Positions 10,607 to 62,091 of a stretch of DNA of 64,000 nt are shown one piece after another. The position numbers and the translations under genes are program-made. Position 1 is the first letter of the stretch; each line of letters opens with the position of its first letter. Origin of the DNA: Desulfuromonadales bacterium (lineage in GTDB: Bacteria > Desulfobacterota > Desulfuromonadia > Geobacterales > Pseudopelobacteraceae); assembly GCA_013349405.1 (NCBI GenBank), contig DUZS01000004.1, positions 94,726 to 158,725 on the forward strand, given 5' to 3'. The notes under the pieces are model-generated. The model made no database searches, had not been told where the DNA came from, and saw nothing but the letters and a program-made list of their open reading frames with translations.

Positions 10607-10623
10607 CGCAACTTGTGTGCCAG
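10607..10623 (-). promoter_or_regulatory. sigma-54 -24/-12 promoter candidate (csbD-BON-yihY-ndvB)
   Basis: Minus strand reads CTGGCAC-ACAAG-TTGCG, about 75 nt upstream of the csbD ATG. Confidence 0.75.
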
Positions 10624-10648
10624 AGGGGAAAATAAGGTACTGCCTGTG

Positions 10649-10665
10649 CAAGAGTCTGATTTTAA
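10649..10665 (-). promoter_or_regulatory. IHF-like site (AATCAG-N4-TTG on the minus strand)
   Basis: The 17-mer CAAGAGTCTGATTTTAA is identical to 61316-61332. Both start 26 nt beyond the -24 box of a minus-strand sigma-54 promoter. It fits WATCAR-N4-TTR. Confidence 0.45.
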
Positions 10666-10717
10666 AGTGAAAATATGGACAGTTTAAGGTGTGGGGGTAT
10701 ATGAACCGTCGAAGAAA

Positions 10718-10752
10718 TCTGCCATGTTTAGCATAACTGTTACATATGGTGG
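10718..10752. promoter_or_regulatory. shared upstream box (candidate enhancer/UAS)
   Basis: CTGCCATGTTTAGCATAACTGTTACATATGGTGG resembles 25008-25041 and 16324-16357. It lies midway between divergent sigma-54 promoters. Confidence 0.4.
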
Positions 10753-10849
10753 CCCATTCAACAGTTACGACTGCCGTCAGTTATGCCGGGTTTCTCATAA
10801 CACCCGTACAAACAGACTCTTACAGCTAATCAGAGCGCGGTGAGTGCTC

Positions 10850-10864
10850 TGGCACTCTCGTTGC
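10850..10864 (+). promoter_or_regulatory. sigma-54 -24/-12 promoter candidate (AI-2E transporter-pssA)
   Basis: TGGCAC-TCTCG-TTGCT, with a core identical to 61517-61532. It lies inside the track ORF 10844-12151, so the true start is downstream. Confidence 0.75.
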
Positions 10865-10909
10865 TTGGTGTTTTCCGCTGCACATTCAGGATCTCAACTG
10901 GTGCCAAAC

Positions 10910-12151
10910 ATGATGACTCAAGAATTAATAACCGGACTCCTCACAAATGGAAGCAGACGTCGCGTGATCCGCATTGAGCCATCACCGGGTACCATCATCG
11001 CACTACTGCTGCTCATTGCCGGAATATGGGCAATAACCCAACTGCTGGTGGTGGTTCTGGTGCTTGTGGCAGCGCTCACAATAGTCGGCGCCGTAAACCC
11101 TGCGGTTCGATGGTTTGAAGAGCGGGGTATGCGCCGCGGGATGGGTATTGCACTCGTATTCGCCACGCTCTCGGTAATTGCAGCACTCATTATTACACTG
11201 ACGATTCCATCGCTCATTGAGCAGATAAGCGACCTTTTGGACAAGGAACCGGCCTTGCGTGCAGGCTTGTCAAAATGGTTGAAGGAGTCACACCTGACCA
11301 GCCCCCTGGCGGATCTTCTGCGTAAAGTTCATTCAGGAGACCTTGTCAGAATGGCGGCAGCAAATGCTTTCGCGCTCTCTACGCGCCTCCTCGAGATTTT
11401 CGCGTACAGCCTGAGTTCTCTCTTTCTTGCCCTGTACATCATGATCGACCGGGACCGGCTTCGTGGAGGGCTCTTTCTGGTAGTACCGCGCTCCCACCAT
11501 ATCCGGCTTTCCCGGATCATGTTGAACCTTGAAACGATTGTTGGCGGGTACGTGCGCGGACAGTTAATCACTTCCGGGCTTATGTCCGCTTTTGTCTTCA
11601 TTCTGCTGACTTCCTGCGGCGCGCCAAACGCACTGGCTATTGCAGTGTTTGCCGGTGTTGCCGATGTACTCCCCTACATCGGCCCGATCTTTTCAGTGGG
11701 AGCAGCAGTAGTGGCGGCGTTTTCATTAAGTCCGGCAATTATTATCATTGTTCTCGTACTGATGCTCGTTTATGAAGAGTTCGAAAGCCGGTTGATTATT
11801 CCCCGGATTTATGGCCGTGCATTGCGACTCCCGTCATCGGTTATCCTGTTGTCGTTATTGGTTGGCGCTGTTCTGATGGGCATCATCGGGGCACTCCTTG
11901 CCCTTCCGGTAGCGGCTGCGCTGCTGATGCTGATTGAGGAACTGCGTGTTGAGCTGCCGGGACAACAGGAACAGGCAGAAGATGTGGAGATCAGAAAGCG
12001 GGATGATCGGGGTGAAGAAGAGTATGAGCGCCGCGCTGAAGGCATGCCTGCCGAGCAGGCCGCCGCAATCGCCGTCGAAATATCTACCGATCGACATAAT
12101 CAGGAAAAGAGTCTACCGTTAAAAACGGTTGCTCCAGAAAGCGAAGAGTGA
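10910..12151 (+). CDS. AI-2E family transporter (PerM/UPF0118-like permease)
   Basis: Multi-TM protein with an acidic C-terminal tail. The ...LPYIGPIFS... region fits the family. Start set at ATG 10910, downstream of the promoter. Confidence 0.75.
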   Translation: MMTQELITGLLTNGSRRRVIRIEPSPGTIIALLLLIAGIWAITQLLVVVLVLVAALTIVGAVNPAVRWFEERGMRRGMGIALVFATLSVIAALIITLTIPSLIEQISDLLDKEPALRAGLSKWLKESHLTSPLADLLRKVHSGDLVRMAAANAFALSTRLLEIFAYSLSSLFLALYIMIDRDRLRGGLFLVVPRSHHIRLSRIMLNLETIVGGYVRGQLITSGLMSAFVFILLTSCGAPNALAIAVFAGVADVLPYIGPIFSVGAAVVAAFSLSPAIIIIVLVLMLVYEEFESRLIIPRIYGRALRLPSSVILLSLLVGAVLMGIIGALLALPVAAALLMLIEELRVELPGQQEQAEDVEIRKRDDRGEEEYERRAEGMPAEQAAAIAVEISTDRHNQEKSLPLKTVAPESEE

Positions 12152-12158
12152 CACCCTT

Positions 12159-12821
12159 ATGCAAAAATTCACAAGGATGGAGATGAGAACTGATATGAAA
12201 AAACACCAACAGCACAAACCGTTCGCAATGATTCGCGAATTTCAGCTCGCCGACTGGTTCACCCTGGCAAACGCCGTCTGCGGAACGGGAGCACTGTTTT
12301 CCATGCTGTCGTACCTGCAGAATACTGACGTCAGACATGTCTATTTTGCCGGCGGACTGGTAGTGACTGCCTTGGTCTTTGATGTTCTGGACGGACGAAT
12401 TGCCCGGTGGCGTCAGAAAAATTCTATTTTGGGGCGTGAGCTCGATTCTCTTGCCGATGTCATCTCATTTGGTGTCGCACCTGCGGTAATTGCCTACGGA
12501 TGCGGGATGCAGGGGTTGTATGACCGTATAGTCCTGACCTGTTTTGTCGCCTGCGGTGTGTCGCGGCTCGCGCGGTATAATGTTACGGCGGATGAACTGT
12601 CTGAAGGCGGCAGTAAGGTGAAATATTTTGAAGGGACACCGATTCCGACATCAGTGCTGCTGGTATTACTGCTCTGTATTGCTGCATCTCAAGGAGCGCT
12701 GCGCGAATCACTCTGGTTCGGGCATATATTGTTCGCAGGGTTCACTCTTCATCCACTTGTGCTGCTGTATGCGCTTTCCGGTTCTCTGATGATCAGCCGT
12801 ATCAGATTCCCAAAGTTCTAA
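12159..12821 (+). CDS. pssA: CDP-diacylglycerol--serine O-phosphatidyltransferase (CDP-alcohol phosphatidyltransferase family)
   Basis: The D-G-x2-A-R-x8-G-x3-D-x3-D motif is read as DGRIARWRQKNSILGRELDSLADVISF. First ATG after the upstream stop. Confidence 0.8.
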   Translation: MQKFTRMEMRTDMKKHQQHKPFAMIREFQLADWFTLANAVCGTGALFSMLSYLQNTDVRHVYFAGGLVVTALVFDVLDGRIARWRQKNSILGRELDSLADVISFGVAPAVIAYGCGMQGLYDRIVLTCFVACGVSRLARYNVTADELSEGGSKVKYFEGTPIPTSVLLVLLLCIAASQGALRESLWFGHILFAGFTLHPLVLLYALSGSLMISRIRFPKF

Positions 12822-12832
12822 ATTGTTTATTG

Positions 12833-12876
12833 CTGCATAAACGGGCTGATGAATATTCATCAGCCCGTTTATGCAG
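12833..12876. terminator. perfect 44-nt palindrome between convergent genes (bidirectional terminator candidate)
   Basis: CTGCATAAACGGGCTGATGAAT|ATTCATCAGCCCGTTTATGCAG. The second half is the exact reverse complement of the first. Confidence 0.6.
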
Positions 12877-14183: not shown

Positions 14184-14200
14184 GGCAACTACCATGCCAG
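14184..14200 (-). promoter_or_regulatory. sigma-54 -24/-12 promoter candidate
   Basis: Minus strand reads CTGGCAT-GGTAG-TTGCC. Confidence 0.7.
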
Positions 14201-14445
14201 AGATCTTTCATCCGTTATGAATGTCGTAAGCTACTTATATTGCTTATTAAATATAATTCTAACGTGTCTGGTGACGGAAAAACCGTATCACGATCCCGTC
14301 ACGCAGAATAAAAACCGCTAAATATGGCAGTTAACCTGTAATGGTACGGATTCCAATGGTGGTTGAAATCGTGCAATGTCGCACTACATACTATTTTCCC
14401 TTTATATTCAATCTGTTGCGCATTTTTAAACTGCTTGATTATCTA

Positions 14446-14461
14446 TGGCACGGTAGTTGCG
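14446..14461 (+). promoter_or_regulatory. sigma-54 -24/-12 promoter candidate
   Basis: TGGCAC-GGTAG-TTGCG. It overlaps the track ORF start at 14457, so the real start is the SD-preceded ATG at 14532. Confidence 0.75.
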
Positions 14462-14531: not shown

Positions 14532-14918
14532 ATGACAATTGAGGAATTAAAAACGAACGTAATTGATTTTGCGTCACTGATAACAACTGCCGGTGCTGTA
14601 GCAGTGCTCTGCATAGCTTACATAGTATTTGTGCTTACCTGGAGTTATTCAAAAGGCGACAGAATAGGATATATCCAGAAATTTTCAGAAAAAGGTTGGC
14701 TGTGTAAAACCTGGGAAGGGGAGCTGCAGATGCTGCCTATAGCGGGTGCGCTGCCTGAAAAATTTCTCTTTACCGTGCGCGACAAAACGATAGTCACTAA
14801 AATCAATGCCGCCGTGGGGAAGAAAGTTGCGCTCTATTACACACAGCACAAAGGCGTCCCCACAACCTGTTTCGGCGAAACAGAATACTTTGTGGGGGAA
14901 GTCCGGATTCTGGATTAG
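14532..14918 (+). CDS. membrane-anchored protein, unknown function (128 aa)
   Basis: AGGAGAG lies upstream of ATG 14532. One N-terminal TM (LITTAGAVAVLCIAYIVFVL). No motif recognised. Confidence 0.6.
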   Translation: MTIEELKTNVIDFASLITTAGAVAVLCIAYIVFVLTWSYSKGDRIGYIQKFSEKGWLCKTWEGELQMLPIAGALPEKFLFTVRDKTIVTKINAAVGKKVALYYTQHKGVPTTCFGETEYFVGEVRILD

Positions 14919-14971: not shown

Positions 14972-15961
14972 CTACACGTTATTGCTGTTCTGACGCCTCT
15001 TCACGTATATTACCAAACCAAGAAGACCACTGCCTAAGAGCATCATTGTGCCCGGTTCCGGAACCGGAGCAGAGGTTCCGCCGTCACTTACACTTCCACC
15101 GCCACCGCCGCTGAGACCGTCGCTGCCGAAGTCTTTGCTGTCGAGATCGTTGCTGCTGAAGTCGGAACAGCCATTTCCGGTACCCTGAGCGCTGCTGTTG
15201 GAGATGCGATTGTCTGTCATTGTCACTGCACCGGTGAGGGCAACGGCTCTCCCGCAGAGAATTTGTGCCGTCGGATCGAGGCCGACACTAGCAAGAGCAA
15301 GAATATTGCCCTCAAAAGTAGAACCTGAACCGAGAGTTGCCGAACTACCTACCCGCCAGTACACACCGTTCGTCGAATTTCCGTTGATGACAGACACCCT
15401 TGAAGCGCTTGCGGTTGTCAGGGTACTCCCGATATTGAATACGAAGTCTGCATCGGAAACGTTCTGGAAATCGAGAACCAGATTTCCGTTCAACTGTGCC
15501 GAAGAATTAAAATTATAGACTCCGGCGGTAAGTGTCGAGTGACCCGCAGAGCCGAGGATAAAACCGGTGTAATCTGCTGTCATTGCCATGCCGGCAAGCA
15601 TGTTGTATGCAGTTCTTGCATCGGCCAGAGCTGTTTGTGCAACCCCGTCGTTTGTATGAATTGTGCCGCCGCTCACGGCTCCATCAGGATAAAAGCCGGT
15701 GATCGCACTCCCGGGAGTCACACCCAGATTCCCGAAAATTGTTGTGGTTGCGTTCGGCGCGCTGTGACCGTTGGTAACGGTAGCGGCACCTAAAGCCGCA
15801 AAACTCTGTGCCGAACCGAGTATCGGTGTGGCTTCTGCAATAGTCGGGGAAAAGGCTGTCAACAGCGGCACGACAGCGAAGAGTGACAGGAACGTACATT
15901 TTACTTTCGCTGCAGTGACATAAGTAAATATGCTGCATGGTTTTTTAGATTTTTTTTTCAT
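14972..15961 (-). CDS. DUF3494 (ice-binding-like) protein with a PEP-CTERM sorting signal
   Basis: LGSAQSFAALGAATVTN...GVYWRVGSSATLGSGSTFEGNILAL. The C-terminus is VPEPGTMMLLGSGLLGLVIYVKRRQ (PEP motif, TM, basic residues). GGAGA lies upstream of ATG 15961. Confidence 0.85.
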   Translation of the reverse strand: MKKKSKKPCSIFTYVTAAKVKCTFLSLFAVVPLLTAFSPTIAEATPILGSAQSFAALGAATVTNGHSAPNATTTIFGNLGVTPGSAITGFYPDGAVSGGTIHTNDGVAQTALADARTAYNMLAGMAMTADYTGFILGSAGHSTLTAGVYNFNSSAQLNGNLVLDFQNVSDADFVFNIGSTLTTASASRVSVINGNSTNGVYWRVGSSATLGSGSTFEGNILALASVGLDPTAQILCGRAVALTGAVTMTDNRISNSSAQGTGNGCSDFSSNDLDSKDFGSDGLSGGGGGSVSDGGTSAPVPEPGTMMLLGSGLLGLVIYVKRRQNSNNV

Positions 15962-16150: not shown

Positions 16151-16193
16151 AAAAAATCACCAGGGGCCCATGGGAGGGAAAGCAGCCCCTGGT
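16151..16193 (-). ncRNA. leader hairpin plus U-tract (repeat copy A): attenuator or short sigma-54-dependent RNA candidate
   Basis: Minus-strand RNA reads ACCAGGGGC-UGCUUUCCCUCCCAUGG-GCCCCUGGU followed by GAUUUUUU. It begins about 20 nt after the -12 box at 16213. Confidence 0.5.
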
Positions 16194-16323: not shown

Positions 16324-16357
16324 CTGTCACATATGATTTTTCTGTTACATGCGGCGG
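16324..16357. promoter_or_regulatory. shared upstream box (candidate enhancer/UAS)
   Basis: CTGTCACATATGATTTTTCTGTTACATGCGGCGG lies about 100 bp from the minus promoter and about 100-130 bp from the plus promoter. Confidence 0.4.
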
Positions 16358-16511: not shown

Positions 16512-17072
16512 TTGAGAAATTCTATAACAAAAATCCTGCGTGCGTATCTGGTTATCGTGGTGCTTTTATTGCCAGTGACGGCTGCTATGGCCGGAAATAG
16601 CCATGAGATTCTGGCGGCTGACATCCTGACAGGCGTTGTTCCTCTGACCGGCTTGGCCGTCGCCTATTTCAGTGACGATACAGAGGGCCAAAAACAGTGG
16701 TTGAGAAATACCGGAGTTAATCAGGTCCTCACATCAGCCCTTCGGCTCGGATTCAATGAAACAAGTCTGGGTGAACGACCGAACGGAAATAAATACGGGT
16801 TTCCCTCCGGGCATGTGGCTTTTGTAATGTCCGGCGCAGCCTTTCTGGGTGAGCGCTACGGCTGGAAATGGGGTGCTCCCGCGTATATGGCGACTGCATA
16901 CGTCGCGTATGTCCGCGTTGACCAGGACAAGCATCACTGGCGTGATGTCATTGCCGCCGGTGCATTGGGATATGGCGTGGCCCTGCTCACGGTCACGCCG
17001 GAACATGCGACCCACCTTGCTCCGGTTATCGGACCGGATTTCCTCGGTCTGCGCTGGCAGCGCTCCTTCTGA
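16512..17072 (+). CDS. PAP2-family phosphatase (lipid phosphate phosphatase type)
   Basis: PSGH and SRx5Hx3D-type motifs are read as FPSGHVAF and YVRVDQDKHHWRDVIAAG. The start is probably TTG 16512 (AAGGAG 8 nt upstream). ATG 16491 would lie about 10 nt from the predicted transcription start. Confidence 0.8.
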   Translation: MRNSITKILRAYLVIVVLLLPVTAAMAGNSHEILAADILTGVVPLTGLAVAYFSDDTEGQKQWLRNTGVNQVLTSALRLGFNETSLGERPNGNKYGFPSGHVAFVMSGAAFLGERYGWKWGAPAYMATAYVAYVRVDQDKHHWRDVIAAGALGYGVALLTVTPEHATHLAPVIGPDFLGLRWQRSF

Positions 17073-17659: not shown

Positions 17660-19216
17660 ATGTTGACAAAAATCAGTTTTTTACTCCTCAGTTATTCATT
17701 GCTTTTTGCTGCTTCAGTATATGCAGATCCGGACAAAGCGGTGAGACCGGAGGTGACCGAAACCGGGTACAGTTGGCGGCGTGTCAAATATGCGGAAAAC
17801 AACGTCTTTACCTCAGAGAATCCGCCCGATGCACCGAAGCCGGCCGCCATTGCTCCGGAGAGAGTCACTCCCTGGGAGCAGATGCCGAATAAAAGCTATC
17901 TCATTCCTGCTCTCGAGATTCCGGGGTTTCTTGCTCTGCTTAACATCTACGACAGGTATGCCTATCCGGACCAGTTGCAGGACGGAAAAAAGGTGTACAG
18001 CTCTACCTTCTCCAGCACCTGGGAGCACCTGAGAAAACAAAACTGGGTCTTCGACCAGGACCCTTTTAACGTAAATCAGTTCGGACATCCCTATCAGGGA
18101 GCGACAATGTACGGACTGGCCCGTTCCGCCAACCTCGGTTTCTGGGAGTCGGCCGCCTACAGCAACGCAGGCAGCTTTTTGTGGAAGATGGCCGGAGAAA
18201 CCGATCCTCCATCCATCAATGATCAGATCACGACCGGCACCGCAGGAAGCCTTCTCGGTGAGGCGCTGTTTCGTATGGCAGAGCTTGTGCTCAACGATGG
18301 CGGCTCTCATCCCGACCTCTGGCACGAAGCAGGCGCGGCAGTAATATCGCCACCAACTGCTTTCAACCGCATGGCTTTTGGCGATCGCTACAAGGCAAAA
18401 TTCCCCAGCCTTAACCCGGCGACCTTCTGGCGGTTTCAACTCGGCGCCAGCGAAAGCAACAGTTCGAAAAATAACGCAATCATTGACTTCGGCATGTCTT
18501 ACGGGCTACCTGGTAAGCCTGGGTATACCTACACCCGTCCTCTTGACTATTTTGATTTCGAGTTAAGCGGACAGACGAGAGCGGACAACCCCGTTGAAAA
18601 CATTATGCTGCGTGGCCTGCTGTACGGTAAGGATTATCGCGCCGGCGAAAAATATCGTGGCATCTGGGGCCTCTACGGGAGCTTCGACTATCTGTCTCCC
18701 TCCGCTTTTCGTGTTTCTACCACCGCCCTTTCACTTGGCACAACTGGGCAATACTGGCTAGCTCCCGGCGTGGCACTGCAGGGTTCACTGCTGGGAGGTG
18801 TCGGTTTCGGCGCTGCCGGAACAACGCCGAATGAATTCGGCGAAAGAGATTACCACTACGGAGTTGCCCCGCAGGGCCTACTTGCACTGCGTCTGCTCTT
18901 CGGTAATCGAGCAGCGCTTGAAGTGGTCGGCCGTGGCTATTATGTCAACGGCACGGGTCACTTCACCACTGTCGGCAGCACTGCATACGATAACGCAGGG
19001 GGGGCGGAAAAGATTGTCCGGGTCAAGACGGCCTTCAACATCAGAGTCTATGGTCGCCATGGCCTGGGGCTCCAGTTTGTCGAGTCTATCCGTGATTCGC
19101 AATATGCCAACCAACCGAGCAGGCATCAGAGTGAAGGAGTGACAAGCCTTGTCTATACATTTACCGGAGACTCGTTTTTCGGTGCTGTCGAATGGCGCGA
19201 TAATGTCAATCGGTAA
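17660..19216 (+). CDS. secreted or outer-membrane protein, possibly DUF3943 family
   Basis: Signal peptide ending SVYA. NWVFDQDPFNVNQFGHPYQGATMYGLARS. The C-terminal half is Gly/aromatic-rich and beta-barrel-like. The family name is recalled from memory only. Confidence 0.5.
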   Translation: MLTKISFLLLSYSLLFAASVYADPDKAVRPEVTETGYSWRRVKYAENNVFTSENPPDAPKPAAIAPERVTPWEQMPNKSYLIPALEIPGFLALLNIYDRYAYPDQLQDGKKVYSSTFSSTWEHLRKQNWVFDQDPFNVNQFGHPYQGATMYGLARSANLGFWESAAYSNAGSFLWKMAGETDPPSINDQITTGTAGSLLGEALFRMAELVLNDGGSHPDLWHEAGAAVISPPTAFNRMAFGDRYKAKFPSLNPATFWRFQLGASESNSSKNNAIIDFGMSYGLPGKPGYTYTRPLDYFDFELSGQTRADNPVENIMLRGLLYGKDYRAGEKYRGIWGLYGSFDYLSPSAFRVSTTALSLGTTGQYWLAPGVALQGSLLGGVGFGAAGTTPNEFGERDYHYGVAPQGLLALRLLFGNRAALEVVGRGYYVNGTGHFTTVGSTAYDNAGGAEKIVRVKTAFNIRVYGRHGLGLQFVESIRDSQYANQPSRHQSEGVTSLVYTFTGDSFFGAVEWRDNVNR

Positions 19217-19240: not shown

Positions 19241-19456
19241 ATGAAGAAAATTGCTTGGAATAGTATTGCAGCAGTGGTTTTAGGCGTCCTGATTATCGGA
19301 GTGAGCGGCTGCAAGAAAGAGGGACCGATGGAGAGAACCGGCCAGAAAATTGATGAGGCTGTGGAAAAAACCGGTCAGCAGATTGATAAGGGAATCAAAA
19401 AGAGCGGAGAGAATATCGAAAAGGCAGGGGATAAAATCAAGGACTCGGTAAAATGA
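19241..19456 (+). CDS. small lipoprotein with K/E/G-rich repeats (71 aa)
   Basis: Lipobox GVSGC. Repeats TGQKIDEAVEKTGQQIDKGIKKSGENIEKAGDKIKD. GGAGA lies upstream. Confidence 0.7.
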   Translation: MKKIAWNSIAAVVLGVLIIGVSGCKKEGPMERTGQKIDEAVEKTGQQIDKGIKKSGENIEKAGDKIKDSVK

Positions 19457-19570: not shown

Positions 19571-19586
19571 TGGCATGCTCATTGCG
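19571..19586 (+). promoter_or_regulatory. sigma-54 -24/-12 promoter candidate (usp-ATPase-GGDEF)
   Basis: TGGCAT-GCTCA-TTGCG. Confidence 0.7.
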
Positions 19587-19659: not shown

Positions 19660-19710
19660 ATGAAAAAGTCATGGAGTGACCGGAATGCCTGGTTCCGGTG
19701 GCAGAAATGA
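19660..19710 (+). CDS. 16-codon Trp-rich uORF (MKKSWSDRNAWFRWQK) coupled to usp
   Basis: GAAGGGA lies upstream. Its TGA overlaps the usp ATG (ATGA at 19707-19710). Confidence 0.3.
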   Translation: MKKSWSDRNAWFRWQK

Positions 19711-20501
19711 GCTACCGCACAATAGTTACTGTCGTTAACGAACACACGATATCCATGGTGATAGCCCGCTATGCCATCGCACTGGCGGCAGCCGGCAAGA
19801 CTAATCTGGTATTGTATGCCGTCGATGACGATGGCAGTGACCAGACCGTACTGCAACGGAGTGCTCGCCATCAGGATCACCTCTACTCGGTCGCTTCTGA
19901 ACTTGGCATCTCCGTGACGCGAATACGTGAAGTCGGCAAGATCGCTACGCTGCTGCCAAAGCGGGTAGTGCTCGAAAAAGCCGATCTCGTGTTTTATCCG
20001 CTGACGCCGTATAAACGCTTCGGCGCTGACCGGCAGCGGCTTCTGCTTCACACCCTGCTGCAGTCAATCAGGACTGATCTGGCCATCATGCGTGTCGTCA
20101 CCCTGGCCAGGCCGCACCCGGGGCATATACTGGTGCCGCTTGGGAAGAACATCAGCGGTAAGGAGCACCGACTGTTGTTTATCAGCGAGTTGGCCTCCTG
20201 TTTCCACGCAGAGATCACGCTGCTTCATCTGTTTGCAGAGCGTGACAAGCCAACCATGCCTGACGAGATCCACCAGTTTCGCAAGCTGCTCGAACAGCGG
20301 CACATTTCGGTACATGAGCGAAGCGGGCAGGGACAGATCGGCAGAGCCATCACCGTGGAAGCGGTCACCCGTCAGAATGACCTGGTCGTGCTCGGTGCCA
20401 GCGGGCGCGGAGTAGTGCGGAGACTGTTCTTCGGCAATCCCGCCGGTGATGTCATGCAGCAGCCACCCTGTAACACGATCCTGTTCCAGGCTGCTCACTG
20501 A
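19707..20501 (+). CDS. tandem universal stress protein (UspA family)
   Basis: Two Usp halves. The C-terminal motif is DLVVLGASGRGVVRRLFFGNPAGDVMQQPPCNTILF. Confidence 0.8.
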   Translation: MSYRTIVTVVNEHTISMVIARYAIALAAAGKTNLVLYAVDDDGSDQTVLQRSARHQDHLYSVASELGISVTRIREVGKIATLLPKRVVLEKADLVFYPLTPYKRFGADRQRLLLHTLLQSIRTDLAIMRVVTLARPHPGHILVPLGKNISGKEHRLLFISELASCFHAEITLLHLFAERDKPTMPDEIHQFRKLLEQRHISVHERSGQGQIGRAITVEAVTRQNDLVVLGASGRGVVRRLFFGNPAGDVMQQPPCNTILFQAAH

Positions 20502-52719: not shown

Positions 52720-54324
52720 ATGGCAACTAAGTCAGAACTCATAAAACCTCGCTCTTCAAAGCTGCTGCGCTGGCTGATCGGAATTCCGGTCGTACTTGCT
52801 CTGCTGCTTGTGGCAGGATCATATTTTCTTGATGAACCGTTGCGCCGCTTCATGGAAGAGAGAATCAACCGCAATCTGAAAGGGTATTCGGTTCGGCTCC
52901 CCGCTGTGCATCTCCAACTGATCGGCCTCTCACTGACCTTGAAGGGACTGACACTCATTCAACAGGCACATCCCGCTCCGGCTGTCGCATCTTTCCCTTT
53001 GATTAATGCCTCGATCCACTGGCGCGAGATTTTCTCGGGGAAGCTTGTCGCCGAAGTGCTGCTGAATCAGCCGAACATCAACATCAATCTGAAACAGTTG
53101 AGCAGCGAGGCGGCCAGTACGGTTCCGCTTAAAGAACGCGGCTGGCAGCAGGCGCTGGAGGATATCTACCCGCTTAAAATCAACACCGTCACCGTTACGG
53201 ATGCCAATGTCACCTACATCGACCAGGATCCGCAGAAACCACTCGTCCTGAGCCATCTTAACCTCCGTGCCACCAATATCCGTAATATCCATCAGCCGGA
53301 CTTGATCTATCCTTCTCCGTTCACGCTTGATACGGCCATCTTTGAGAGCGGTTCTGGCAGCATTGAGGGGCATGCAAATTTCCTCGCACAGCCGCATATC
53401 GGCCTGAAAGGACGCCTTTCGCTGGACAAAATACCGCTCGACTACTTCAAAACGCTGGCTGCCCGCTCGAACTTCTCACTCGATGGCGGACTGTTGAAAG
53501 GCACCGGTAACGCCGAGTATGGACCAACGGTAAAAACCGCCCGTATGGAGAGTCTGATCATTCAGGGTATGAAGCTGGACTATATCCATTCACCGCGTAC
53601 CGCCGGCGCCGAAAAAGCCCGTGCTGTCGTGATAAAGAAAGCCGCCAGAAAAATTACCAACAAAGCGGATCTTTTGATCCGTGCTGATACGGTGATCTTG
53701 ACCGGGTGTACCCTCGGCGTTGTAAATAAGGCGGCCAGAAAACCGTACCGCGTCTTCCTGGCAGACACTGATCTGCGGCTGAGCAATTTTTCAAACCAGT
53801 TTGAGCAGGGCCCCGCACAGGTGAGCGTGAAGGCAAAATTTATGGGAAGTGGGGTAACAACGGCTTCTGCTACGTTCCGACCGGAGAACAGAGGGCCGGA
53901 TCTTGATCTTTTCGTCAATATCGGGGCAACCCGACTGACATCGATGAACGACCTGCTCCGCTCGTATGGTGATTTTGACGTCTCTGCCGGGGTATTCTCG
54001 CTCGTGACAGAACTGCATATTAAAAATGGCGCCATATCCGGTTACATCAAGCCGTTCTTTAAAGGAATGGATGTCTATGACCGGCGCACAGACAGTGATC
54101 GCGGCGTTGGTCACAAAATGTACGAAATGATGGTTGGCGGTGTTGCCAAAATTCTTGAAAACAGGCCGCGCCACCAGGTTGCCACCAAAGTGTATATCAG
54201 CGGCCCGGTGGAGAATCCGGAAACCAGCGGTTGGCAGATCGCCCTGGAACTGATCAAAAACGGCTTTTTTAAGGCGATTCTTCCCGGTTTTGAAAAAAAA
54301 GCGAGTGGTGGAGGCATCAAATGA
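52720..54324 (+). CDS. membrane-anchored DUF748/AsmA-like protein
   Basis: N-terminal TM, then a long beta-rich periplasmic region. The family name comes from overall pattern only. Confidence 0.5.
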   Translation: MATKSELIKPRSSKLLRWLIGIPVVLALLLVAGSYFLDEPLRRFMEERINRNLKGYSVRLPAVHLQLIGLSLTLKGLTLIQQAHPAPAVASFPLINASIHWREIFSGKLVAEVLLNQPNININLKQLSSEAASTVPLKERGWQQALEDIYPLKINTVTVTDANVTYIDQDPQKPLVLSHLNLRATNIRNIHQPDLIYPSPFTLDTAIFESGSGSIEGHANFLAQPHIGLKGRLSLDKIPLDYFKTLAARSNFSLDGGLLKGTGNAEYGPTVKTARMESLIIQGMKLDYIHSPRTAGAEKARAVVIKKAARKITNKADLLIRADTVILTGCTLGVVNKAARKPYRVFLADTDLRLSNFSNQFEQGPAQVSVKAKFMGSGVTTASATFRPENRGPDLDLFVNIGATRLTSMNDLLRSYGDFDVSAGVFSLVTELHIKNGAISGYIKPFFKGMDVYDRRTDSDRGVGHKMYEMMVGGVAKILENRPRHQVATKVYISGPVENPETSGWQIALELIKNGFFKAILPGFEKKASGGGIK

Positions 54325-55562
54325 CTGCCGTGACAATCTCAACATCCTACCGTCGCTATGCTCTCGGTCTTCTCCTCACGGTTAACATGCTTAATTATAT
54401 TGACCGTCAGGTGCTCTTCGCAGTTTTTCCGCTGATCAAGATCGATCTTCAGATCACTGATGCGGCACTCGGCCTGCTCGGGTCTGCTTTCATGTTCAGC
54501 TATATGCTCTTCGCGCCGCTTTTCGGCTGGCTGGGTGACCGATGGAGCCGTACTCTGCTCGCTTCCGGTGGCCTCGTTGTCTGGAGTGTGGCGACCGCCC
54601 TTGCCGGTTTTGCCCCCGGTTACCGCACCCTGCTGGCTGCCCGTGCCACTGTCGGCGTCGGTGAGGCGAGTTTTGGCACGGTATCCCCCGGGCTTGTTTC
54701 AGATTTTTTTCCGAAAGAGCGCCGTGGTAAAATTCTCTCCTGGTTCTATGTTGCCATCCCGGTCGGGAGTGCGCTCGGCTACCTCCTTGGCGGACTGCTG
54801 GGGCAGAACTACGGCTGGCATGCCGCATTTATGATGGTCGGAGTGCCGGGCCTGCTGCTCGCAATTCCGATTGCGCTGTTGCGCACACCACCGCGCGGTG
54901 GTGATACCCTTCAACCTGCCGGAGATGAAAAAAATGCATCTTCAGGATACGCGGCGCTGTTAAAAAATCGCTCGTTCGTCTGCAATACGTTGGCAATGGC
55001 AGCTATGACCTTTGCCGTCGGGGGACTTTCGCAATGGCTCCCTTCGTTCCTGCACCGCGTTCACTCTCTTGATGTTGCCAAGGGCAATATGCTGTTCGGT
55101 GCGACCACCGTGCTGGCGGGGATACTGGGCACTCTGGTCGGTGGCTGGCTTGGTGACCGCTGGCAGAAAAAGGACGGTAAGGGCTATCTGCTGTTGTCCG
55201 GGTGGGGGTTTCTCATCGGTACGCCGTTCGCGGTATTGGCTCTCATTGCTCCTGAAATAGTCGGCTGTATGTCGGCAATTTTTATCGCCGAGTTCTTCCT
55301 CTTTCTCAACACCGGTCCGCTGAATACCGTGATTCTCAATGTTACCAGTCCGACTGTTCGCGCCATGGCTTTTGCGGTTAATATCTTCTTTATCCACGCT
55401 CTCGGAGATGCCTTTTCTCCTGCCATTATCGGATGGCTGTCTGACCAGTGGGGGTTGCGCAATGCACTTCTGATAACCCCCGGGGTCATGGTACTGGCCG
55501 GTCTGTTCTGTTTTATCTGCGGCAGATATGTGGTGCAGGATATGGCGAGTGTTGAGGCGTGA
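54321..55562 (+). CDS. MFS transporter
   Basis: 12 TM segments. GWLGDRWSR and the loop 2-3 motif. ATGA overlap with the upstream stop. Confidence 0.8.
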   Translation: MTAVTISTSYRRYALGLLLTVNMLNYIDRQVLFAVFPLIKIDLQITDAALGLLGSAFMFSYMLFAPLFGWLGDRWSRTLLASGGLVVWSVATALAGFAPGYRTLLAARATVGVGEASFGTVSPGLVSDFFPKERRGKILSWFYVAIPVGSALGYLLGGLLGQNYGWHAAFMMVGVPGLLLAIPIALLRTPPRGGDTLQPAGDEKNASSGYAALLKNRSFVCNTLAMAAMTFAVGGLSQWLPSFLHRVHSLDVAKGNMLFGATTVLAGILGTLVGGWLGDRWQKKDGKGYLLLSGWGFLIGTPFAVLALIAPEIVGCMSAIFIAEFFLFLNTGPLNTVILNVTSPTVRAMAFAVNIFFIHALGDAFSPAIIGWLSDQWGLRNALLITPGVMVLAGLFCFICGRYVVQDMASVEA

Positions 55563-55885: not shown

Positions 55886-57162
55886 AACAACTGATCCTGT
55901 CACTGATAGTATTATTCATCATGCTGCCCCTGACGACCGTTGCGGCAGATGACGGCTATGGCTACCCGATCCCGGGGTCATATGAAGCCACCATTATCGG
56001 AACTCCGGTTACGCTGATGCCGGAACTGCCCGCATATATTACCACCCGGCAGCTTGTTCTTGACGTCAATCCGGGTAGAAAGCGCCCGCCGATCTTCTTT
56101 TATGACGAGGGATTGCGCTGCACGTTTGCTTATCAGGAGAAGAAAGCGCCTCTCGTTTTTCTGATCGCCGGAGCCGGTTCGGGTGATCGTTCCGTCAAGC
56201 TGATGACCATGATGAAAGCCTTCTATGTGGCCGGTTTTCACGTCATAACAGTGCCGTCGCCGTCACATGCAAATTTCATCATCTCAGCCTCCCGCAGCAG
56301 TGTCCCGGGAGATTTGGCCGAAGACGCTGCTGATCTCTATCGGGCCATGGAGAGTGCCTGGAAACAGGTCGCGGGTGATATTGAAGTTTCCTCTTTCAAC
56401 CTCTGCGGCTACAGCCTCGGAGGCACTCAGGCGGCTTTTGTGGCCAGGTTGGACGAGGAACGAAAGGTCTTCAATTTTCGCAAAGTGCTTATGATCAACC
56501 CGGCGGTAAGCCTCTTTAGTTCAGCAACCCGAATCGAAGATCTGATGAAGCAGATCCCGGGCGGAGCCAAGAAACAGGGGATCTTTTTCAACAAAATGCT
56601 GTCCAAATTCAGCCAGTATTATCGCTATGGTAATTTTGTTGCCATAAATGATGAGTTTCTCTACTCGATCTATACAGAGAAGCTGTTCTCTCTGGAAGAG
56701 ACGGCCGGTTTGATCGGACTCACCTACCGCATCAACCTGGCAGGCATGATTTTCGCTTCTGATGTCATGACCAACAGCGGCTACGTCGTACCGAAGAATC
56801 GCAACCTGAAGACCACTGATTCCATTTTTGACTATTTTCTGGTCTCCTCCCACTTGAGCTTCATCGACTATTTCAACGAGTATCTGTTCCCCTATTTCCA
56901 GAAGCAGCGACCGGGTCTGACCAAACAGCAGTACATCCATTCCCTGAGCCTCAAGAGCATCGAGGGGTACCTTACCTCTACAACCAAATTTGCTGTGATG
57001 ACCAACGAAAATGACTTTATTCTGACCGGTGAAGATCTTGATTACCTGCGTCAAATATTCGGCGAGCGTGCCAGGATATACCCTCGCGGCGGACATCTCG
57101 GCAACCTTGAATATAAAGAGAATCTGGCCTCTATGGTATCGTTTTTCGAGGAGACAAAATGA
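55882..57162 (+). CDS. secreted alpha/beta-hydrolase-fold serine hydrolase (lipase/esterase-like)
   Basis: Signal peptide. Nucleophile elbow GYSLGG. ATGA overlap with the upstream gene. Confidence 0.6.
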   Translation: MKQLILSLIVLFIMLPLTTVAADDGYGYPIPGSYEATIIGTPVTLMPELPAYITTRQLVLDVNPGRKRPPIFFYDEGLRCTFAYQEKKAPLVFLIAGAGSGDRSVKLMTMMKAFYVAGFHVITVPSPSHANFIISASRSSVPGDLAEDAADLYRAMESAWKQVAGDIEVSSFNLCGYSLGGTQAAFVARLDEERKVFNFRKVLMINPAVSLFSSATRIEDLMKQIPGGAKKQGIFFNKMLSKFSQYYRYGNFVAINDEFLYSIYTEKLFSLEETAGLIGLTYRINLAGMIFASDVMTNSGYVVPKNRNLKTTDSIFDYFLVSSHLSFIDYFNEYLFPYFQKQRPGLTKQQYIHSLSLKSIEGYLTSTTKFAVMTNENDFILTGEDLDYLRQIFGERARIYPRGGHLGNLEYKENLASMVSFFEETK

Positions 57163-57938
57163 TCGTTATGAGAGCCCTGGTAATCGTGACCGTTATACTG
57201 CTGCTGGCACTACTGGTGTCCGGTTGTGCCACGACGAACAGCAGCACCCTGGCAGAGGTACCGGCGATGCACTCCATAGCTGAGTTCAAAGATCAGCGTT
57301 TCGCCGATGTCTCCGATCCGTGGGAAGGTTTCAATCGGAACATGTACCGGTTTAACTACTACTTCGATAAATATATCTTTATCCCCGTAGTAACCGGCTA
57401 TGAGTTCGTCACCCCCACTTTTGTTCAGAAGCGCATAAGCGGTGTCTACAGTAATCTCGGTGAAGTAACTAATTTTACCAACAGCCTGTTTCAGTTGAAG
57501 GGCACCGAATCAGTCACGACGCTTGGCCGTTTCGTGACAAACAGTACCATAGGTCTTGCCGGAATGTTCGACCCGGCGACCAGTTTCGGCCTTGAGCGGC
57601 ACGACCAGGATTTCGGCAAAACGCTCGGGTACTGGGGTGCAGGCTCCGGCCACTATCTGGTGCTGCCGGTTTTCGGCCCCTCATCCCTCCGTGACGCAGG
57701 GGGACTTGCCGTTGACAGCGCCATAAAATATGGCATATATACCGCTATCGATCCGTTTGGCAGTTCCGGAAACAGTCTCGCCATCGATGCCGGAATAACT
57801 GTTCTGGGGGGCGTCGACGCACGGCACCAGCAGAGTTTCCGCTATTTCGAGAGCGGTAATCCCTTTGAATACTACCTGGTTCGTTTCATCCACCACGAGA
57901 AGCGCTCTATTGAAATAAACCCGCAGGTTACCAAGTAA
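57159..57938 (+). CDS. mlaA: MlaA/VacJ-family outer-membrane lipoprotein
   Basis: Lipobox LVSGC. DPWEGFNRNMYRFNYYFDKYIFIPVVTGYEFVTP. Confidence 0.85.
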   Translation: MIVMRALVIVTVILLLALLVSGCATTNSSTLAEVPAMHSIAEFKDQRFADVSDPWEGFNRNMYRFNYYFDKYIFIPVVTGYEFVTPTFVQKRISGVYSNLGEVTNFTNSLFQLKGTESVTTLGRFVTNSTIGLAGMFDPATSFGLERHDQDFGKTLGYWGAGSGHYLVLPVFGPSSLRDAGGLAVDSAIKYGIYTAIDPFGSSGNSLAIDAGITVLGGVDARHQQSFRYFESGNPFEYYLVRFIHHEKRSIEINPQVTK

Positions 57939-57950
57939 TAGGAGAAGAAT

Positions 57951-58499
57951 ATGGACTCGTCAATTATCAGAAGCATCACAATCGGCAGTATATCGCTGGT
58001 GGCTCTCGCGGTTGCCTCAGTCGGGGGGTGCACGGAAATGAGCCAGCCGAAGTTTGCCGATGTTGTCGCGGTAAAAGAAATAACGGAGACGATCACAACA
58101 CCGCGCGAGGAGTGCCGGGATGTGCAGGTACAGACGAAGGCGCCGGTTAAGGATTCCAATCGAATCGCCGGGACTGTAATTGGCGGAGTTGTCGGCGCCG
58201 TATTGGGCAACCAGATCGGCGGCGGCAGAGGCAAGACAGTCGCCACGATAGCAGGTGGTGCCGGTGGAGCGTATGCCGGAAACAAGGTGCAGGATGGTCT
58301 GCAGGAGAGCGACGTTGTCACTACGACGAGACGGGATTGCAAAACGGTCTATGACAAAGCGAAGAAAGTGGTCGGCTATGACGTCACGTATCGTCTCAAA
58401 GACAAGGAAGGGGTCGTAAGGACTTCGTTCCGTCCGGGCAGCACACTGCCGGTGGAAAATGGCATGGTGGTTGTGACACCGCCTGTAGCTGCGCAGTGA
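57951..58499 (+). CDS. glycine-zipper 2TM lipoprotein (SlyB / 17-kDa antigen-like)
   Basis: GTVIGGVVGAVLGNQIGGGRGKTVATIAGGAGGAYAGNKV. Confidence 0.8.
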   Translation: MDSSIIRSITIGSISLVALAVASVGGCTEMSQPKFADVVAVKEITETITTPREECRDVQVQTKAPVKDSNRIAGTVIGGVVGAVLGNQIGGGRGKTVATIAGGAGGAYAGNKVQDGLQESDVVTTTRRDCKTVYDKAKKVVGYDVTYRLKDKEGVVRTSFRPGSTLPVENGMVVVTPPVAAQ

Positions 58500-60884: not shown

Positions 60885-60990
60885 AGTGGCCTCCTTTTAT
60901 TTTCAATTATTATGTGTCTCATCCTGTCGGCACATCAAATTTTTGTTCGTCACTGGATGTGTGGAATATCCGAGCCATCTGAATATTCAC

Positions 60991-61197
60991 TCAATCGCAA
61001 TCAAGGAATTCTGGTTTTGACTTTTTAACATGATGTATTTTTTGAATCAGATCATCAACCTTGACCCGCATCGCACGGGTATCGTGATGTTCGGCACAAA
61101 TCGAACCGTCATCTACCCATTTCAGGATAAGTGGCGTTTCCAGGCAATATGTTGCGACCGCATTTTCAATTGACGTCCAGGTTGTTTCAGATGACAT
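60991..61197 (-). CDS. small protein, possibly an excisionase/MerR-like HTH protein (68 aa)
   Basis: AAGGAGA lies upstream. SIENAVATYCLETPLILKWVDDGSI...RVKVDDL resembles the HTH_17 pattern. The assignment is weak. Confidence 0.45.
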   Translation of the reverse strand: MSSETTWTSIENAVATYCLETPLILKWVDDGSICAEHHDTRAMRVKVDDLIQKIHHVKKSKPEFLDCD

Positions 61198-61273
61198 GAC
61201 GAATCTCCTTTTTCAGTAAGCGTTCCATTGGGTGCATGCGTTGCTGTGAGCATGTTCTGCCAGGAAGCGATAT

Positions 61274-61290
61274 CGCAACTAACGTGCCAT
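61274..61290 (-). promoter_or_regulatory. sigma-54 -24/-12 promoter candidate (four small genes 61197-59764)
   Basis: Minus strand reads ATGGCAC-GTTAG-TTGCG, about 75 nt upstream of ATG 61197. Confidence 0.75.
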
Positions 61291-61315
61291 AGAATAACTA
61301 CAGAAATTGCGCTCT

Positions 61316-61332
61316 CAAGAGTCTGATTTTAA
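61316..61332 (-). promoter_or_regulatory. IHF-like site
   Basis: CAAGAGTCTGATTTTAA is identical to 10649-10665 and sits at the same offset from the -24 box. Confidence 0.45.
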
Positions 61333-61516
61333 TGGGTTTAAATCGAGTGAAAGGTTCTGAGTGAAGGGGTCGCCGCCATCGCCTCCCGTCATATTTGGCA
61401 GTTGCGTTAGGCGTGACGGGTTCCGCATATAAATTCGGCTTTACGCTTTACGCATATTTTATATTTATCCGTTTACAAACAGACCGTTGCAATTGCAACG
61501 CCCGCATATTTTTTTC

Positions 61517-61532
61517 TGGCACTCTCGTTGCT
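61517..61532 (+). promoter_or_regulatory. sigma-54 -24/-12 promoter candidate (41-aa ORF)
   Basis: TGGCAC-TCTCG-TTGCT, identical to 10850-10864. Confidence 0.75.
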
Positions 61533-61628
61533 CTGAACAATACTTTGAAAGAAATATAATTTCACTTGTTGAGGGTAATACCGTTCACTGAAGCCGTACG
61601 TGAACAGTATTGCAGCTAAAGAGGCCTT

Positions 61629-61754
61629 ATGATGGATCATACTGACGGCTGGATGGGTGGATGGATGGGCGGACAGATGTCGATTTGGATGGTACTCGCC
61701 ATTCTGGTGGTAGTTGTTGTCGTGATCAAGAGTCTGACCAGAAAAAAATCGTGA
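61629..61754 (+). CDS. 41-aa single-TM small protein (below the ORF-track cutoff)
   Basis: MMDHTDGWMGGWMGGQMSIWMVLAILVVVVVVIKSLTRKKS. AAAGAGG lies 4 nt upstream, about 85 nt after the predicted sigma-54 transcription start. Confidence 0.45.
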   Translation: MMDHTDGWMGGWMGGQMSIWMVLAILVVVVVVIKSLTRKKS

Positions 61755-62075
61755 GTTGCCGACAGCCAAACCTGGAAACCAAAGTAACGCGCACACGATC
61801 GGCTTGCAAGGCGAACACCCCCAGGAAGCGAAGCTAGGCCCATGCTTGATTATTTGATCAATTCTGTAGGTAGCCTTGGTCACAGGGCTATCCTGCACGA
61901 CACTATCGTGAAAATTGCATAAGCAACACCGTACACCAATCACCGCCCGTCATATATGGTCATTATGCTAAATACAACGGTTTCTGCTGGCGACTTCACT
62001 TTCACCACCCGTTCCGAATATTATAGTATCTATTAAAAACAGCTTGTTAGGCTGCAAAGAATCCAAAGATTATCT

Positions 62076-62091
62076 TGGCGTGGTAATTGCG
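62076..62091 (+). promoter_or_regulatory. sigma-54 -24/-12 promoter candidate upstream of dnaK
   Basis: TGGCGT-GGTAA-TTGCG, about 70 nt upstream of the ATG. Confidence 0.55.

Follow-up and report, generated by a model that had tools for sequence, protein, structure and literature searches.

The 64,000-nucleotide stretch of contig DUZS01000004.1 (positions 94,726 to 158,725) from a Desulfuromonadales bacterium, in the following called the window, raises the question why promoters of the sigma factor sigma-54 (RpoN) are crowded into a single region and whether they belong to one regulatory system. The initial annotation of the window had listed 19 matches to the -24/-12 promoter motif and proposed that they constitute one large, co-regulated RpoN stimulon. 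Our analysis suggests that the region is very likely a densely clustered sigma-54 regulon, co-regulated through one shared type of enhancer. It would comprise approximately 45 genes served by 18 promoters and 13 enhancers within 52 kb, corresponding to about one promoter per 3 kb.

Sigma-54 promoters in the window

All 19 listed sites are present, with the correction that the coordinates on the minus strand had been given 1 nt too low (10608, not 10607, etc.). The exact motif TGGCAC-N5-TTGC occurs 12 times in the window compared to 0.31 ± 0.51 times in 100 dinucleotide shuffles (maximum 2), so that the hit density withstands the comparison with shuffled sequence that had been put forward as a check. 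Ten of the exact matches belong to the listed sites (10608, 10850, 14446, 16454, 25137, 31477, 32388, 50782, 61275 and 61517). Two further ones, both intragenic and without enhancer, were not listed earlier: the match at 27365-27379 (+) lies inside a CheB-like gene, 244 nt ahead of the next gene, and the match at 41486-41500 (-) is antisense within a Big_5 gene. Six listed sites carry one mismatch (TGGCAT at 14185, 19571 and 29923; -12 TTGA at 16214 and 24896; -12 TTGT at 45849) and three carry two (TGGCGG at 40406, TGGCTC/TTGT at 44723 and TGGCGT at 62076). The sigma-54 class is characterized by GG and GC doublets 10 bp apart in TGGCAC-N5-TTGC(W), and the window sites conform to it: the GG and the spacing are kept in 19 of 19 sites and the full -12 GC in 15, leaving four sites with the G alone (TTGA in two, TTGT in two). 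The exact GG/GC spacing claimed initially therefore holds for the GG and the distance but not for every GC. Six of the 19 sites carry the extended motif CTCTGGCA(C/T). In a scan of the window with a generic sigma-54 weight matrix, scores of at least 13 bits fall almost exclusively on the listed sites; low thresholds give only a modest surplus relative to the shuffles (50 versus 35), which shows that the signal is carried by the strong sites.

The position of the matches relative to the genes points in the same direction. Nineteen of 21 strong matches, comprising every listed site, are intergenic, with intergenic DNA making up 12.8% of the window after refinement of the start codons (binomial P ~2e-15), a test that is partly circular as some starts were refined with the promoters in view. 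For this refinement, start codons were shifted to the first in-frame start supported by a Shine-Dalgarno sequence or a lipobox, and for two genes the gene calls deposited with the metagenome-assembled genome (MAG) concur with the refined starts. In most cases the shifted start reveals a signal peptide or lipobox, as had been anticipated. Because promoters fall within the longest open reading frames (ORFs), several annotated start codons in this region should move downstream. All 19 sites are co-oriented with a gene preceded by a Shine-Dalgarno sequence, the start codon following 26-379 nt after the predicted transcription start, which bears out the arrangement described initially (the starts for 25137, 61517 and 19571 were missed by the start-codon scan and were taken directly from the sequence). 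Where the leader is long, it includes a hairpin (16214) or a c-di-GMP-I riboswitch (31477), whereas that of 40406 is unexplained. In the five divergent pairs (10 sites) the -24 elements are spaced 240-261 bp. A further matrix match at 30011 (-), TTGGCAG...TTCGCA, was rejected as a promoter as it belongs to the enhancer region of 29923, and a scan of the window for tRNAs found none. Together with the shared enhancer and the conservation described below, the shuffles and the intergenic position uphold the view that these are genuine -24/-12 promoters, about one per transcription unit.

A shared enhancer at near-fixed distance

Aligning the divergent regions revealed conserved blocks in the middle and on both sides, which led to the enhancer. 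It consists of two tandem 16-bp palindromes of the consensus CYGTCAYATATGACRG, whose centres are 18 bp apart, and it is found upstream of 18 of the 19 listed sites. A matrix of the palindrome unit derived from seven enhancers recovered the other six, i.e., those with 14185/14446, 29923, 31477, 32388, 40406 and 44723 among their targets. With a relaxed tandem threshold of at least 12 bits, 13 tandem sites are found in the 64 kb and all of them are upstream of sigma-54 sites. These 13 enhancers serve the 18 promoters, five being common to divergent pairs.

The geometry is close to invariant. The gap from the enhancer end to the T of the -24 element is 93-98 bp in 16 of the 18 promoters, and the two exceptions, 86 bp (32388) and 115 bp (14446), correspond to roughly one helical turn less and two more. 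For 18 of the 19 sites the tandem palindromes are thereby located 86-115 bp from the TGG, within the range of ~80-150 bp of an upstream activator site (UAS). Setting the T of TGGCAC to -26, the palindrome units are centred at approximately -131 and -149. In the five divergent regions the enhancer is central, with 95-97 bp to either promoter, apart from the 115 bp on the P14446 side.

As controls served 160 other loci, which were fetched with the activator described below as bait and amount to ~2.1 Mb. Tandem enhancers of at least 18 bits occur 10 times in the window and not once in these ~2.1 Mb of other loci containing an enhancer-binding protein (EBP), with the single exception of locus L005 (Geobacter sp. 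UBA6802). At a threshold of at least 12 bits the controls contain 19 tandem enhancers (0.009 per kb) compared to 0.2 per kb in the window, and single units of at least 12 bits occur at 0.019 per kb and 0.30 per kb, respectively. Metagenome contigs scanned with the activator, in which the best match was 58% identical, provided no orthologous context; they yielded no tandem enhancer in 0.8 Mb and serve as negative control only. The control loci of relatives are nearly devoid of such sites. The large RpoN stimulon proposed initially is thus best understood as the regulon of one activator in one region, and the sites do not constitute evidence for RpoN being the general-purpose sigma factor of this organism.

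An IHF-like site between enhancer and promoter

An alignment anchored on TGGCAC uncovered a further element centred near -58: 16 of the 18 promoters have a WWWCAR-N4-TTR core at a distance of 35-37 bp upstream from the TGG. CAR-N4-TTR is exact in 13-14 of the cores and the TT is invariant. At 32388 the core is found at 27 bp, shifted by 9-10 bp along with the enhancer. Each promoter of the divergent pairs has its own core, and the cores of three modules are identical (CAGACTCTTG). The core agrees with the E. coli consensus of integration host factor (IHF), WATCAR-N4-TTR, and is placed where IHF sites are found in textbook sigma-54 promoters. IHF would be a plausible ligand of these cores, and it was linked to RpoN promoters in Geobacter (PMC7962754). 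Scanning with the enhancer matrix and checking the expected columns showed neither the shared enhancer nor an IHF-like core at 19571, 27365 and 41486.

The local activator and its operon

The sole EBP encoded in the window is the protein 34215-32665 (-), which has REC-Sigma54_activat-HTH_8 architecture (Pfam; Sigma54_activat, 2.2e-70). Its translation contains a GAFTGS loop, the Walker A motif GETGTGKG and a Walker B motif, i.e., the AAA+ domain with a GAFTGA-type loop that characterizes EBPs. It is encoded in one candidate operon with a CheB-CheR-PAS_10 fusion (40251-37552, -) and a CHASE3/PAS hybrid histidine kinase (37640-34212, -), both assigned with Pfam. The protein 32665-34215 is the likely, though far from certain, activator that binds the enhancers. 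Against the named equivalogs of the NtrC family (NtrC, ZraR, AtoC, FhlA, NifA, PspF, GlrR and others) it scores below all NCBIfam cut-offs, the best score being that of FhlA with 408 versus a cut-off of 830. A protein search with the activator returned at least 120 clusters at 79% identity or more, which carry generic names ("NtrC family", "FhlA") where they carry any.

Next to the activator operon, a protein of ~195-199 aa is encoded in the window (31727-32314, -) and in four related loci, namely L005 (5969-6484), L163 (11931-12527), L165 (12005-12598) and L166 (11964-12563). It always adjoins the activator operon and is always located behind its own enhancer and sigma-54 module. It has a sub-threshold BTAD match (E = 0.016) and its N-terminus looks winged-helix/SARP-like by eye, making a role as co-regulator or feedback component possible.

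Conservation in related genomes

The closest relatives of the window are MAGs of Desulfuromonadaceae and Geobacteraceae. In five genomes (loci L005, L163, L164, L165 and L166) a module of enhancer and sigma-54 promoter is found near an orthologue of the activator, with activators 77-93% identical and gaps of 86-98 bp. L005 contains six tandem enhancers that score 18 bits or more. Automatic pairing assigned sigma-54 sites to four of them, with gaps of 87-98 bp, and the other two have a degenerate -24 element (TGGCCC and GGGCAC) at 96 and 86 bp as well as IHF-like cores. The four further loci, L163-L166, encode activators 81-93% identical and include two from closed genomes, OW818642.1 (3.7 Mb) and OW818669.1 (4.2 Mb). 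The order cheBR-kinase-activator is kept in all four, and a tandem enhancer is found 86-97 bp upstream of each of their nine strict TGGCAY-N5-TTGC sites. The module that immediately follows the activator gene and precedes the ~197-aa protein recurs in three of the four (L163, L165 and L166), and L166 has an analogous weak module before the orthologue of the gene behind 40406. Targets in the relatives again include CsbD, BON, DUF748, an outer-membrane beta-barrel, STAS/kinase, ice-binding-like proteins and the 195-aa protein, to which L005 adds an ElaB-like protein. Even the non-consensus -12 TTGT of P45849 is also present in L005 (P20134), upstream of the orthologous 334-aa gene.

The C-terminal HTH region of the activator is ~80% identical across five orthologues including that of L005. 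In the L005 activator (9395-11122) a PAS/coiled-coil N-terminus replaces the REC domain, and its gene directly follows cheBR with no kinase between. This protein represents a sensor-domain swap within one regulon family, with the HTH and the DNA site retained. Directly past its stop codon, L005 has a sigma-54 promoter (11287) with no obvious ORF before the next enhancer, and this promoter may drive a non-coding RNA. Two strong single palindromes in the orthologue loci L003, L004 and L008 are inside coding sequence and were dismissed as chance occurrences.

Proposed mechanism and alternative explanations

The features described above can be combined into one mechanism. Two dimers or a higher oligomer of the NtrC-type activator would bind the tandem palindromes, the activator 32665-34215 being phosphorylated by the adjacent CHASE3/PAS hybrid kinase and perhaps modulated by the CheB-CheR-PAS protein. 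The DNA that separates enhancer and promoter would be bent by IHF, and the activator would hydrolyse ATP to open the closed complex of the sigma-54 holoenzyme at -24/-12. As one enhancer lies midway between divergent promoters, each of which has an IHF-like site, one bound activator assembly could fire both. We infer both the RpoN dependence of the 18 promoters and their inducing signal from the DNA sequence.

Several observations weigh against a single regulon under the local activator. The enhancer matrix was partly trained on the window itself, and the activator was assigned by adjacency and co-occurrence. No sigma-54 promoter or enhancer was found before the cheBR-kinase-activator operon. 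The genes rpoN and ihf are absent from the 64-kb window, their presence in the genome being assumed from the lineage; in G. sulfurreducens RpoN is essential and IHF is present (PMC2725144, PMC7962754). Five promoters have a non-consensus -24 or -12 element, and all elements of 40406 are weak. The loci L003, L004 and L008 contain activator orthologues with no module in their limited or non-syntenic flanks. Finally, the label "stress" for the targets is taken from family names (CsbD, BON/OsmY, Usp, DnaK). The co-regulated set of the initial annotation is accordingly retained for 18 of the 19 sites, which have the common enhancer, the IHF-like site, the local activator and the conservation in their favour; 19571 is outside of it and 40406 is a weak member.

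Some of these observations would fit an alternative in which the sigma-54 promoters and their common enhancer are real but the palindromes are bound by another EBP or by a factor that is not an EBP, the local two-component system controlling something else. The orthologues in L003, L004 and L008, 77-80% identical and with the same HTH, have no module in their flanks, the regulatory operon of the window is itself without a module in front, its assignment was made by proximity, and in L165 a second EBP is encoded 9 kb away, adjoining another module. Yet in the window as in five other genomes, modules are found within 0.1-2 kb of the activator gene, in L005 the HTH and the enhancer are both kept although PAS replaces REC as the sensor domain, and the flanks covered are short for L004 and L008 (12 and 8.8 kb). 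Moreover, Fis-type HTH dimers typically bind palindromes of ~16 bp, a size matched by the palindrome unit. We therefore consider this alternative unlikely, though still worth bearing in mind.

The regularity of the control regions might also arise if these ~250-bp regions were recent copies of a dispersed repeat or mobile promoter cassette, similar to miniature inverted-repeat transposable elements. Five regions are near-identical in length (240-261 bp) and layout, the core promoters of 10850 and 61517 are identical as are the IHF-like cores of three modules, and 16214 and 24896 are both followed by the same hairpin. But pairwise identity between the control regions is 0.52-0.62 compared to 0.50 for shuffled sequence, with the likeness confined to the functional motifs, and such near-random identity outside the motifs speaks for selection on function rather than recent copying of a cassette; the spacing exceptions, being near whole helical turns, likewise point to selection on function. 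In addition, eight modules are unidirectional, the motifs stand at equal spacing before orthologous genes in five other genomes, and no terminal repeats or target duplications were seen in the alignment, a dedicated repeat search not having been made. A cassette was rejected on the near-random identity and is very improbable. Least probable is that a short, degenerate motif gave rise to the matches by chance or through base composition. The motif allowing two mismatches is only modestly enriched (104 versus 77 expected), three listed sites carry two mismatches, and the exact matches 27365 and 41486 are intragenic and enhancer-less. Against this stand the excess of exact matches over the shuffles (12 versus 0.31), the concentration of strong matches in intergenic DNA, their co-orientation with genes and their conservation across genomes; the shuffles and the phased co-occurrence of enhancer and IHF-like site effectively refute chance as an explanation.

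Control modules and target genes

The predicted target set of the regulon is one of envelope, lipid and osmotic/general-stress protection genes, including seven ice-binding-like (PF11999) surface proteins. Module 1 is organized around the UAS at 10719-10752 (30.5 bits; gaps 96 and 97 bp; IHF offsets 36 and 37). The targets of its exact minus-strand promoter (10608-10622; IHF-like core 10649-10658) are csbD (10530-10348), a BON/OsmY-like gene (10312-9551), brkB (9509-8604) and a cyclic beta-1,2-glucan synthase-like gene (8607-1). The start of the latter overlaps the brkB stop, so that it would be the last gene of the csbD-BON-brkB operon. This ORF (more than 2868 aa, -) is open at the window edge and has a weak GT2 match, a glucoamylase-like domain, two GH94 supersandwich domains and a GH94 catalytic domain, the architecture of cyclic beta-1,2-glucan synthases of the Cgs/NdvB type. 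The exact plus-strand promoter (10850-10864; IHF-like core 10813-10822) is ahead of an AI-2E transporter (10901-12151) and a CDP-alcohol phosphatidyltransferase (12129-12821).

In module 2 (UAS 14296-14330, units 19 bp apart) the minus-strand promoter (14185-14199, TGGCAT, gap 96 bp) precedes a 68-aa ORF and an ice-binding-like gene (13824-12922), and the plus-strand promoter (14446-14460, gap 115 bp) precedes a 128-aa membrane protein (14532-14918); the extra DNA of about two helical turns falls between the UAS and the IHF-like site. Module 3 (UAS 16324-16357, gaps 95/96 bp) comprises P16214 (16214-16228, -, -12 TTGA), followed by a hairpin (16192-16160) and an ice-binding-like/PEP-CTERM gene (15961-14972), and P16454 (16454-16468, +), followed by PAP2 (16512-17072), a 164-aa lipoprotein, DUF3943 (17660-19216) and a 71-aa ORF (19241-19456). 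Downstream thereof, the enhancer-less site 19571-19585 (+; TGGCATGCTCATTGC; 15.4 bits) is located ahead of Usp (19698-20501), a P-type ATPase (20508-23123) and a GGDEF gene (23053-24021). It is probably a sigma-54 promoter outside the set, under the control of another activator. In module 4 (UAS 25008-25041, gaps 97/95 bp), P24896 (24896-24910, -, -12 TTGA) is followed by a hairpin (24872-24840) and an OmpA-like lipoprotein gene (24797-24195), and P25137 (25137-25151, +) by an 8-codon mini-ORF, Nramp (25239-26975), a CheB-like gene (27000-27587) and a 176-aa ORF. The mini-ORF MEKQFEAE (25208-25234, +) has its own Shine-Dalgarno sequence and is located between P25137 and the Nramp start codon 25239, which is without a good Shine-Dalgarno sequence; it may be a leader peptide or serve translational coupling.

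Modules 5 to 7 are unidirectional on the minus strand. Module 5 (P 29923-29937, TGGCAT; IHF-like core 29964-29973; UAS 30033-30066; gap 95 bp) has a STAS gene (29854-29474) and a PAS-histidine kinase gene (29263-28151) as targets. Module 6 (P 31477-31491; UAS 31585-31618; gap 93 bp) precedes an ice-binding-like gene (31087-30206). A c-di-GMP-I riboswitch (RF01051; 31251-31327, -) matching the covariance model over its full length with 39.7 bits (gathering threshold 35) is located in the leader of 379 nt that separates P31477 from the gene start 31087. Control of the ice-binding-like gene would thus fall to the activator and c-di-GMP alike. The GGDEF gene 23053-24021 is encoded in the neighbouring Usp-ATPase operon. 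Module 7 (P 32388-32402; IHF-like core 32420-32429; UAS 32489-32522; gap 86 bp), directly downstream of the activator gene, has the 195-aa protein (32314-31727) as its target, and its entire upstream half is ~10 bp nearer to the promoter than in the other modules.

On the plus strand, module 8 is the weakest, with one good unit in its UAS (40274-40307, 14.8 bits), a TGGCGG-N5-TTGC promoter (40406-40420, gap 98 bp) and no clean IHF-like core. It would drive a Big_5/ice-binding-like lipoprotein (40685-42751) and an outer-membrane protein with Big_5 and OmpA domains (42864-44459). Module 9 (UAS 44596-44629, 17.2 bits; IHF-like core 44688-44697; P 44723-44737, TGGCTC-N5-TTGT; gap 93 bp) has an ice-binding-like lipoprotein gene (44798-45610) as target. 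Module 10 contains the best UAS of the window (45718-45751, 38.4 bits; IHF-like core 45813-45822; P 45849-45863, -12 TTGT; gap 97 bp) and serves a 103-aa secreted protein, a 334-aa protein (46448-47452) and an Aas-like acyl-ligase/acyltransferase (47456-49936). The leaders 44738-44797 and 45864-45933 (+) of modules 9 and 10 have a conserved stretch in common, AATACTAC.AGGTAT..ACAGGCCGT, which suggests a common element in the 5' untranslated region before two paralogous secreted-protein genes. Module 11 (UAS 50653-50686; IHF-like core 50746-50755; P 50782-50796; gap 95 bp) precedes eight genes, encoding a DUF4398 lipoprotein (50843-51208), a DUF4398-OmpA protein (51227-52438), a DUF748 protein (52720-54324), a transporter of the major facilitator superfamily (54321-55562), two proteins of unknown function, MlaA (57159-57938) and a Gly-zipper protein (57951-58499).

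Module 12 (UAS 61386-61419, gaps 96/97 bp) is again divergent, with exact promoters on both strands. P61275 (61275-61289, -) is ahead of a 68-aa ORF and a 214-aa lipoprotein gene (60884-60240), and P61517 (61517-61531, +) is ahead of the gene of a 41-aa membrane peptide (61629-61754), which with its own sigma-54 promoter is upstream of the last module. Module 13 (+; UAS 61947-61980; IHF-like core 62040-62049; P 62076-62090, TGGCGT-N5-TTGC; gap 95 bp) targets dnaK (62161 to beyond 64000), which encodes a bona fide DnaK. This dnaK is preceded neither by hrcA nor by grpE, its own enhancer, IHF-like core and promoter taking this place.

A promoter-proximal hairpin

An identical GC-rich hairpin with a 10-bp stem occurs three times on the minus strand (16160-16192, 24840-24872 and 24152-24184), each copy being followed by a U-run. 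Its loop, UGCUUCCCCUCCCAU on the minus strand, resembles an anti-Shine-Dalgarno sequence. Two copies begin ~11-13 nt past the predicted starts of both -12 TTGA promoters (P16214 and P24896), and the third (24152-24184) is the terminator of the OmpA-like gene. The promoter-proximal copies are candidates for ~55-nt sigma-54-dependent small RNAs or leader terminators. As there is no room for a further promoter before the OmpA-like start 24797, the OmpA-like gene would need read-through. The hairpin matched no Rfam family at gathering or E-value thresholds and was not found in any fetched related locus. Owing to its short length and high GC content, its fold z-scores do not reach significance.

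A possible wiring of the stress response

A more speculative reading goes beyond the window. A clade of Desulfuromonadaceae/Geobacteraceae might run its general osmotic, envelope and desiccation-type stress response through sigma-54 and one EBP rather than through a system of the RpoS, SigB or EcfG type, a proposal that we put forward only tentatively and hold to be less probable than not. The CHASE3/PAS hybrid kinase would sense the signal, possibly tuned by the CheB-CheR methylation module, and the rigid, often bidirectional enhancers would fire ~18 or more promoters together. The hairpin or small RNA with its anti-Shine-Dalgarno loop, the c-di-GMP riboswitch and the BTAD-like co-regulator could add further layers.

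Comparison with known systems

The nearest concept is the PrsK/PrsR regulon of PEP-CTERM proteins, which was defined purely from a DNA motif and a phylogenetic profile (PMC1569441). In both systems many small operons of surface or secreted proteins are located behind long intergenic regions, an activator-site motif is followed by a sigma-54 -24/-12 element, and the regulator is of the NtrC type with REC-AAA+-Fis/HTH architecture (PMC1569441). However, the present activator scores 345.9 bits against the PrsR family TIGR02915, below the cut-off of 502.6. As its site, PrsR has a 17-nt motif that ends in TTTACA and is separated by ~63 ± 11 nt from the sigma-54 motif, whereas here a tandem 16-bp palindrome is found at 93-98 nt. 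Furthermore, a PEP-CTERM tail is present in just one of the window's targets (14972-15961), and neither PrsK nor PrsT was seen there. Membership in the PrsR family was rejected on score, site and spacing.

The sigma-54 regulome of Desulfovibrio vulgaris Hildenborough also comes from an EBP-rich lineage of the former Deltaproteobacteria (PMC4641369). There, regulons were rebuilt as here from EBP-adjacent sigma-54 promoters and palindromic sites, some EBPs are annotated for envelope or general stress, and sigma-54-dependent non-coding RNAs are found beside EBP genes (PMC4641369). Divergent sigma-54 operons with one EBP site, as described for T3SS/DVUA0100 and orp1/orp2, resemble the bidirectional modules (PMC4641369, PMC3897727, PMC8359166), and the orp operons with their regulator OrpR require IHF (PMC3897727, PMC8359166). 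In the rows of the regulon table considered, each D. vulgaris EBP is assigned one to about nine operons scattered across the genome, whereas here 18 promoters are found in 52 kb at near-invariant spacing. The EBP family, its site and its targets differ between the two organisms.

ZraSR-zraP and PspF-psp are enterobacterial envelope-stress systems that combine sigma-54 with an NtrC-family activator and control one or two target operons; the sigma-54 units zraP and zraSR diverge from each other and have ZraR sites in common. The present activator is below the cut-offs of the ZraR and PspF models (355 versus 760 and 283 versus 444), no Zra or Psp homologues are among the targets, and 18 promoters stand against one or two operons. 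CsbD/YjbJ, OsmY (BON), YihY/BrkB, Usp and ElaB-like proteins are classic members of the RpoS regulon in E. coli or the SigB regulon in Bacillus, and these effector families overlap with the present targets (the ElaB-like protein in L005). RpoS and SigB act by sigma-factor competition, whereas stress effectors behind -24/-12 promoters with an enhancer would be under all-or-none, ATP-dependent control by an EBP. In G. sulfurreducens, with a genome of 3.8 Mb, there is approximately one predicted RpoN promoter per 35 kb, compared to about one per 3 kb here. Genome-wide, 110 RpoN promoters were predicted for this species and its stress genes have no detectable RpoN elements, unlike the present targets, and relatives within Geobacter use RpoN widely (PMC2725144). 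The lipoproteins, outer-membrane proteins, phospholipid enzymes and exopolymer synthesis among the targets fit the proposal of sigma-54 as a controller of the bacterial exterior (PMC3162934).

If the regulon is confirmed, a widespread but unnamed family of sigma-54 activators would gain a function in the control of an envelope/osmotic-stress regulon, and proteins usually of the RpoS/SigB type (CsbD, OsmY-like BON, BrkB, DnaK) could be under all-or-none enhancer control. The locus would moreover be a natural experiment in sigma-54 promoter design, with 18 promoters at near-fixed spacing, helical-turn variants, five symmetric bidirectional cases and a conserved non-consensus -12 element, and as such it would be useful for studying DNA looping and for synthetic sigma-54 circuits. 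As a summary, the individual features are not new in kind, and the most economical interpretation is an enhancer-dependent system of canonical type that is used on an uncommonly large and regular scale. As judged from the comparison with the systems above, what appears to be new is the activator family together with its binding site and regulon, an architecture of such density and stereotypy, and the apparent placement of general-stress effector families (CsbD, OsmY-like, BrkB, DnaK) under enhancer-dependent control.

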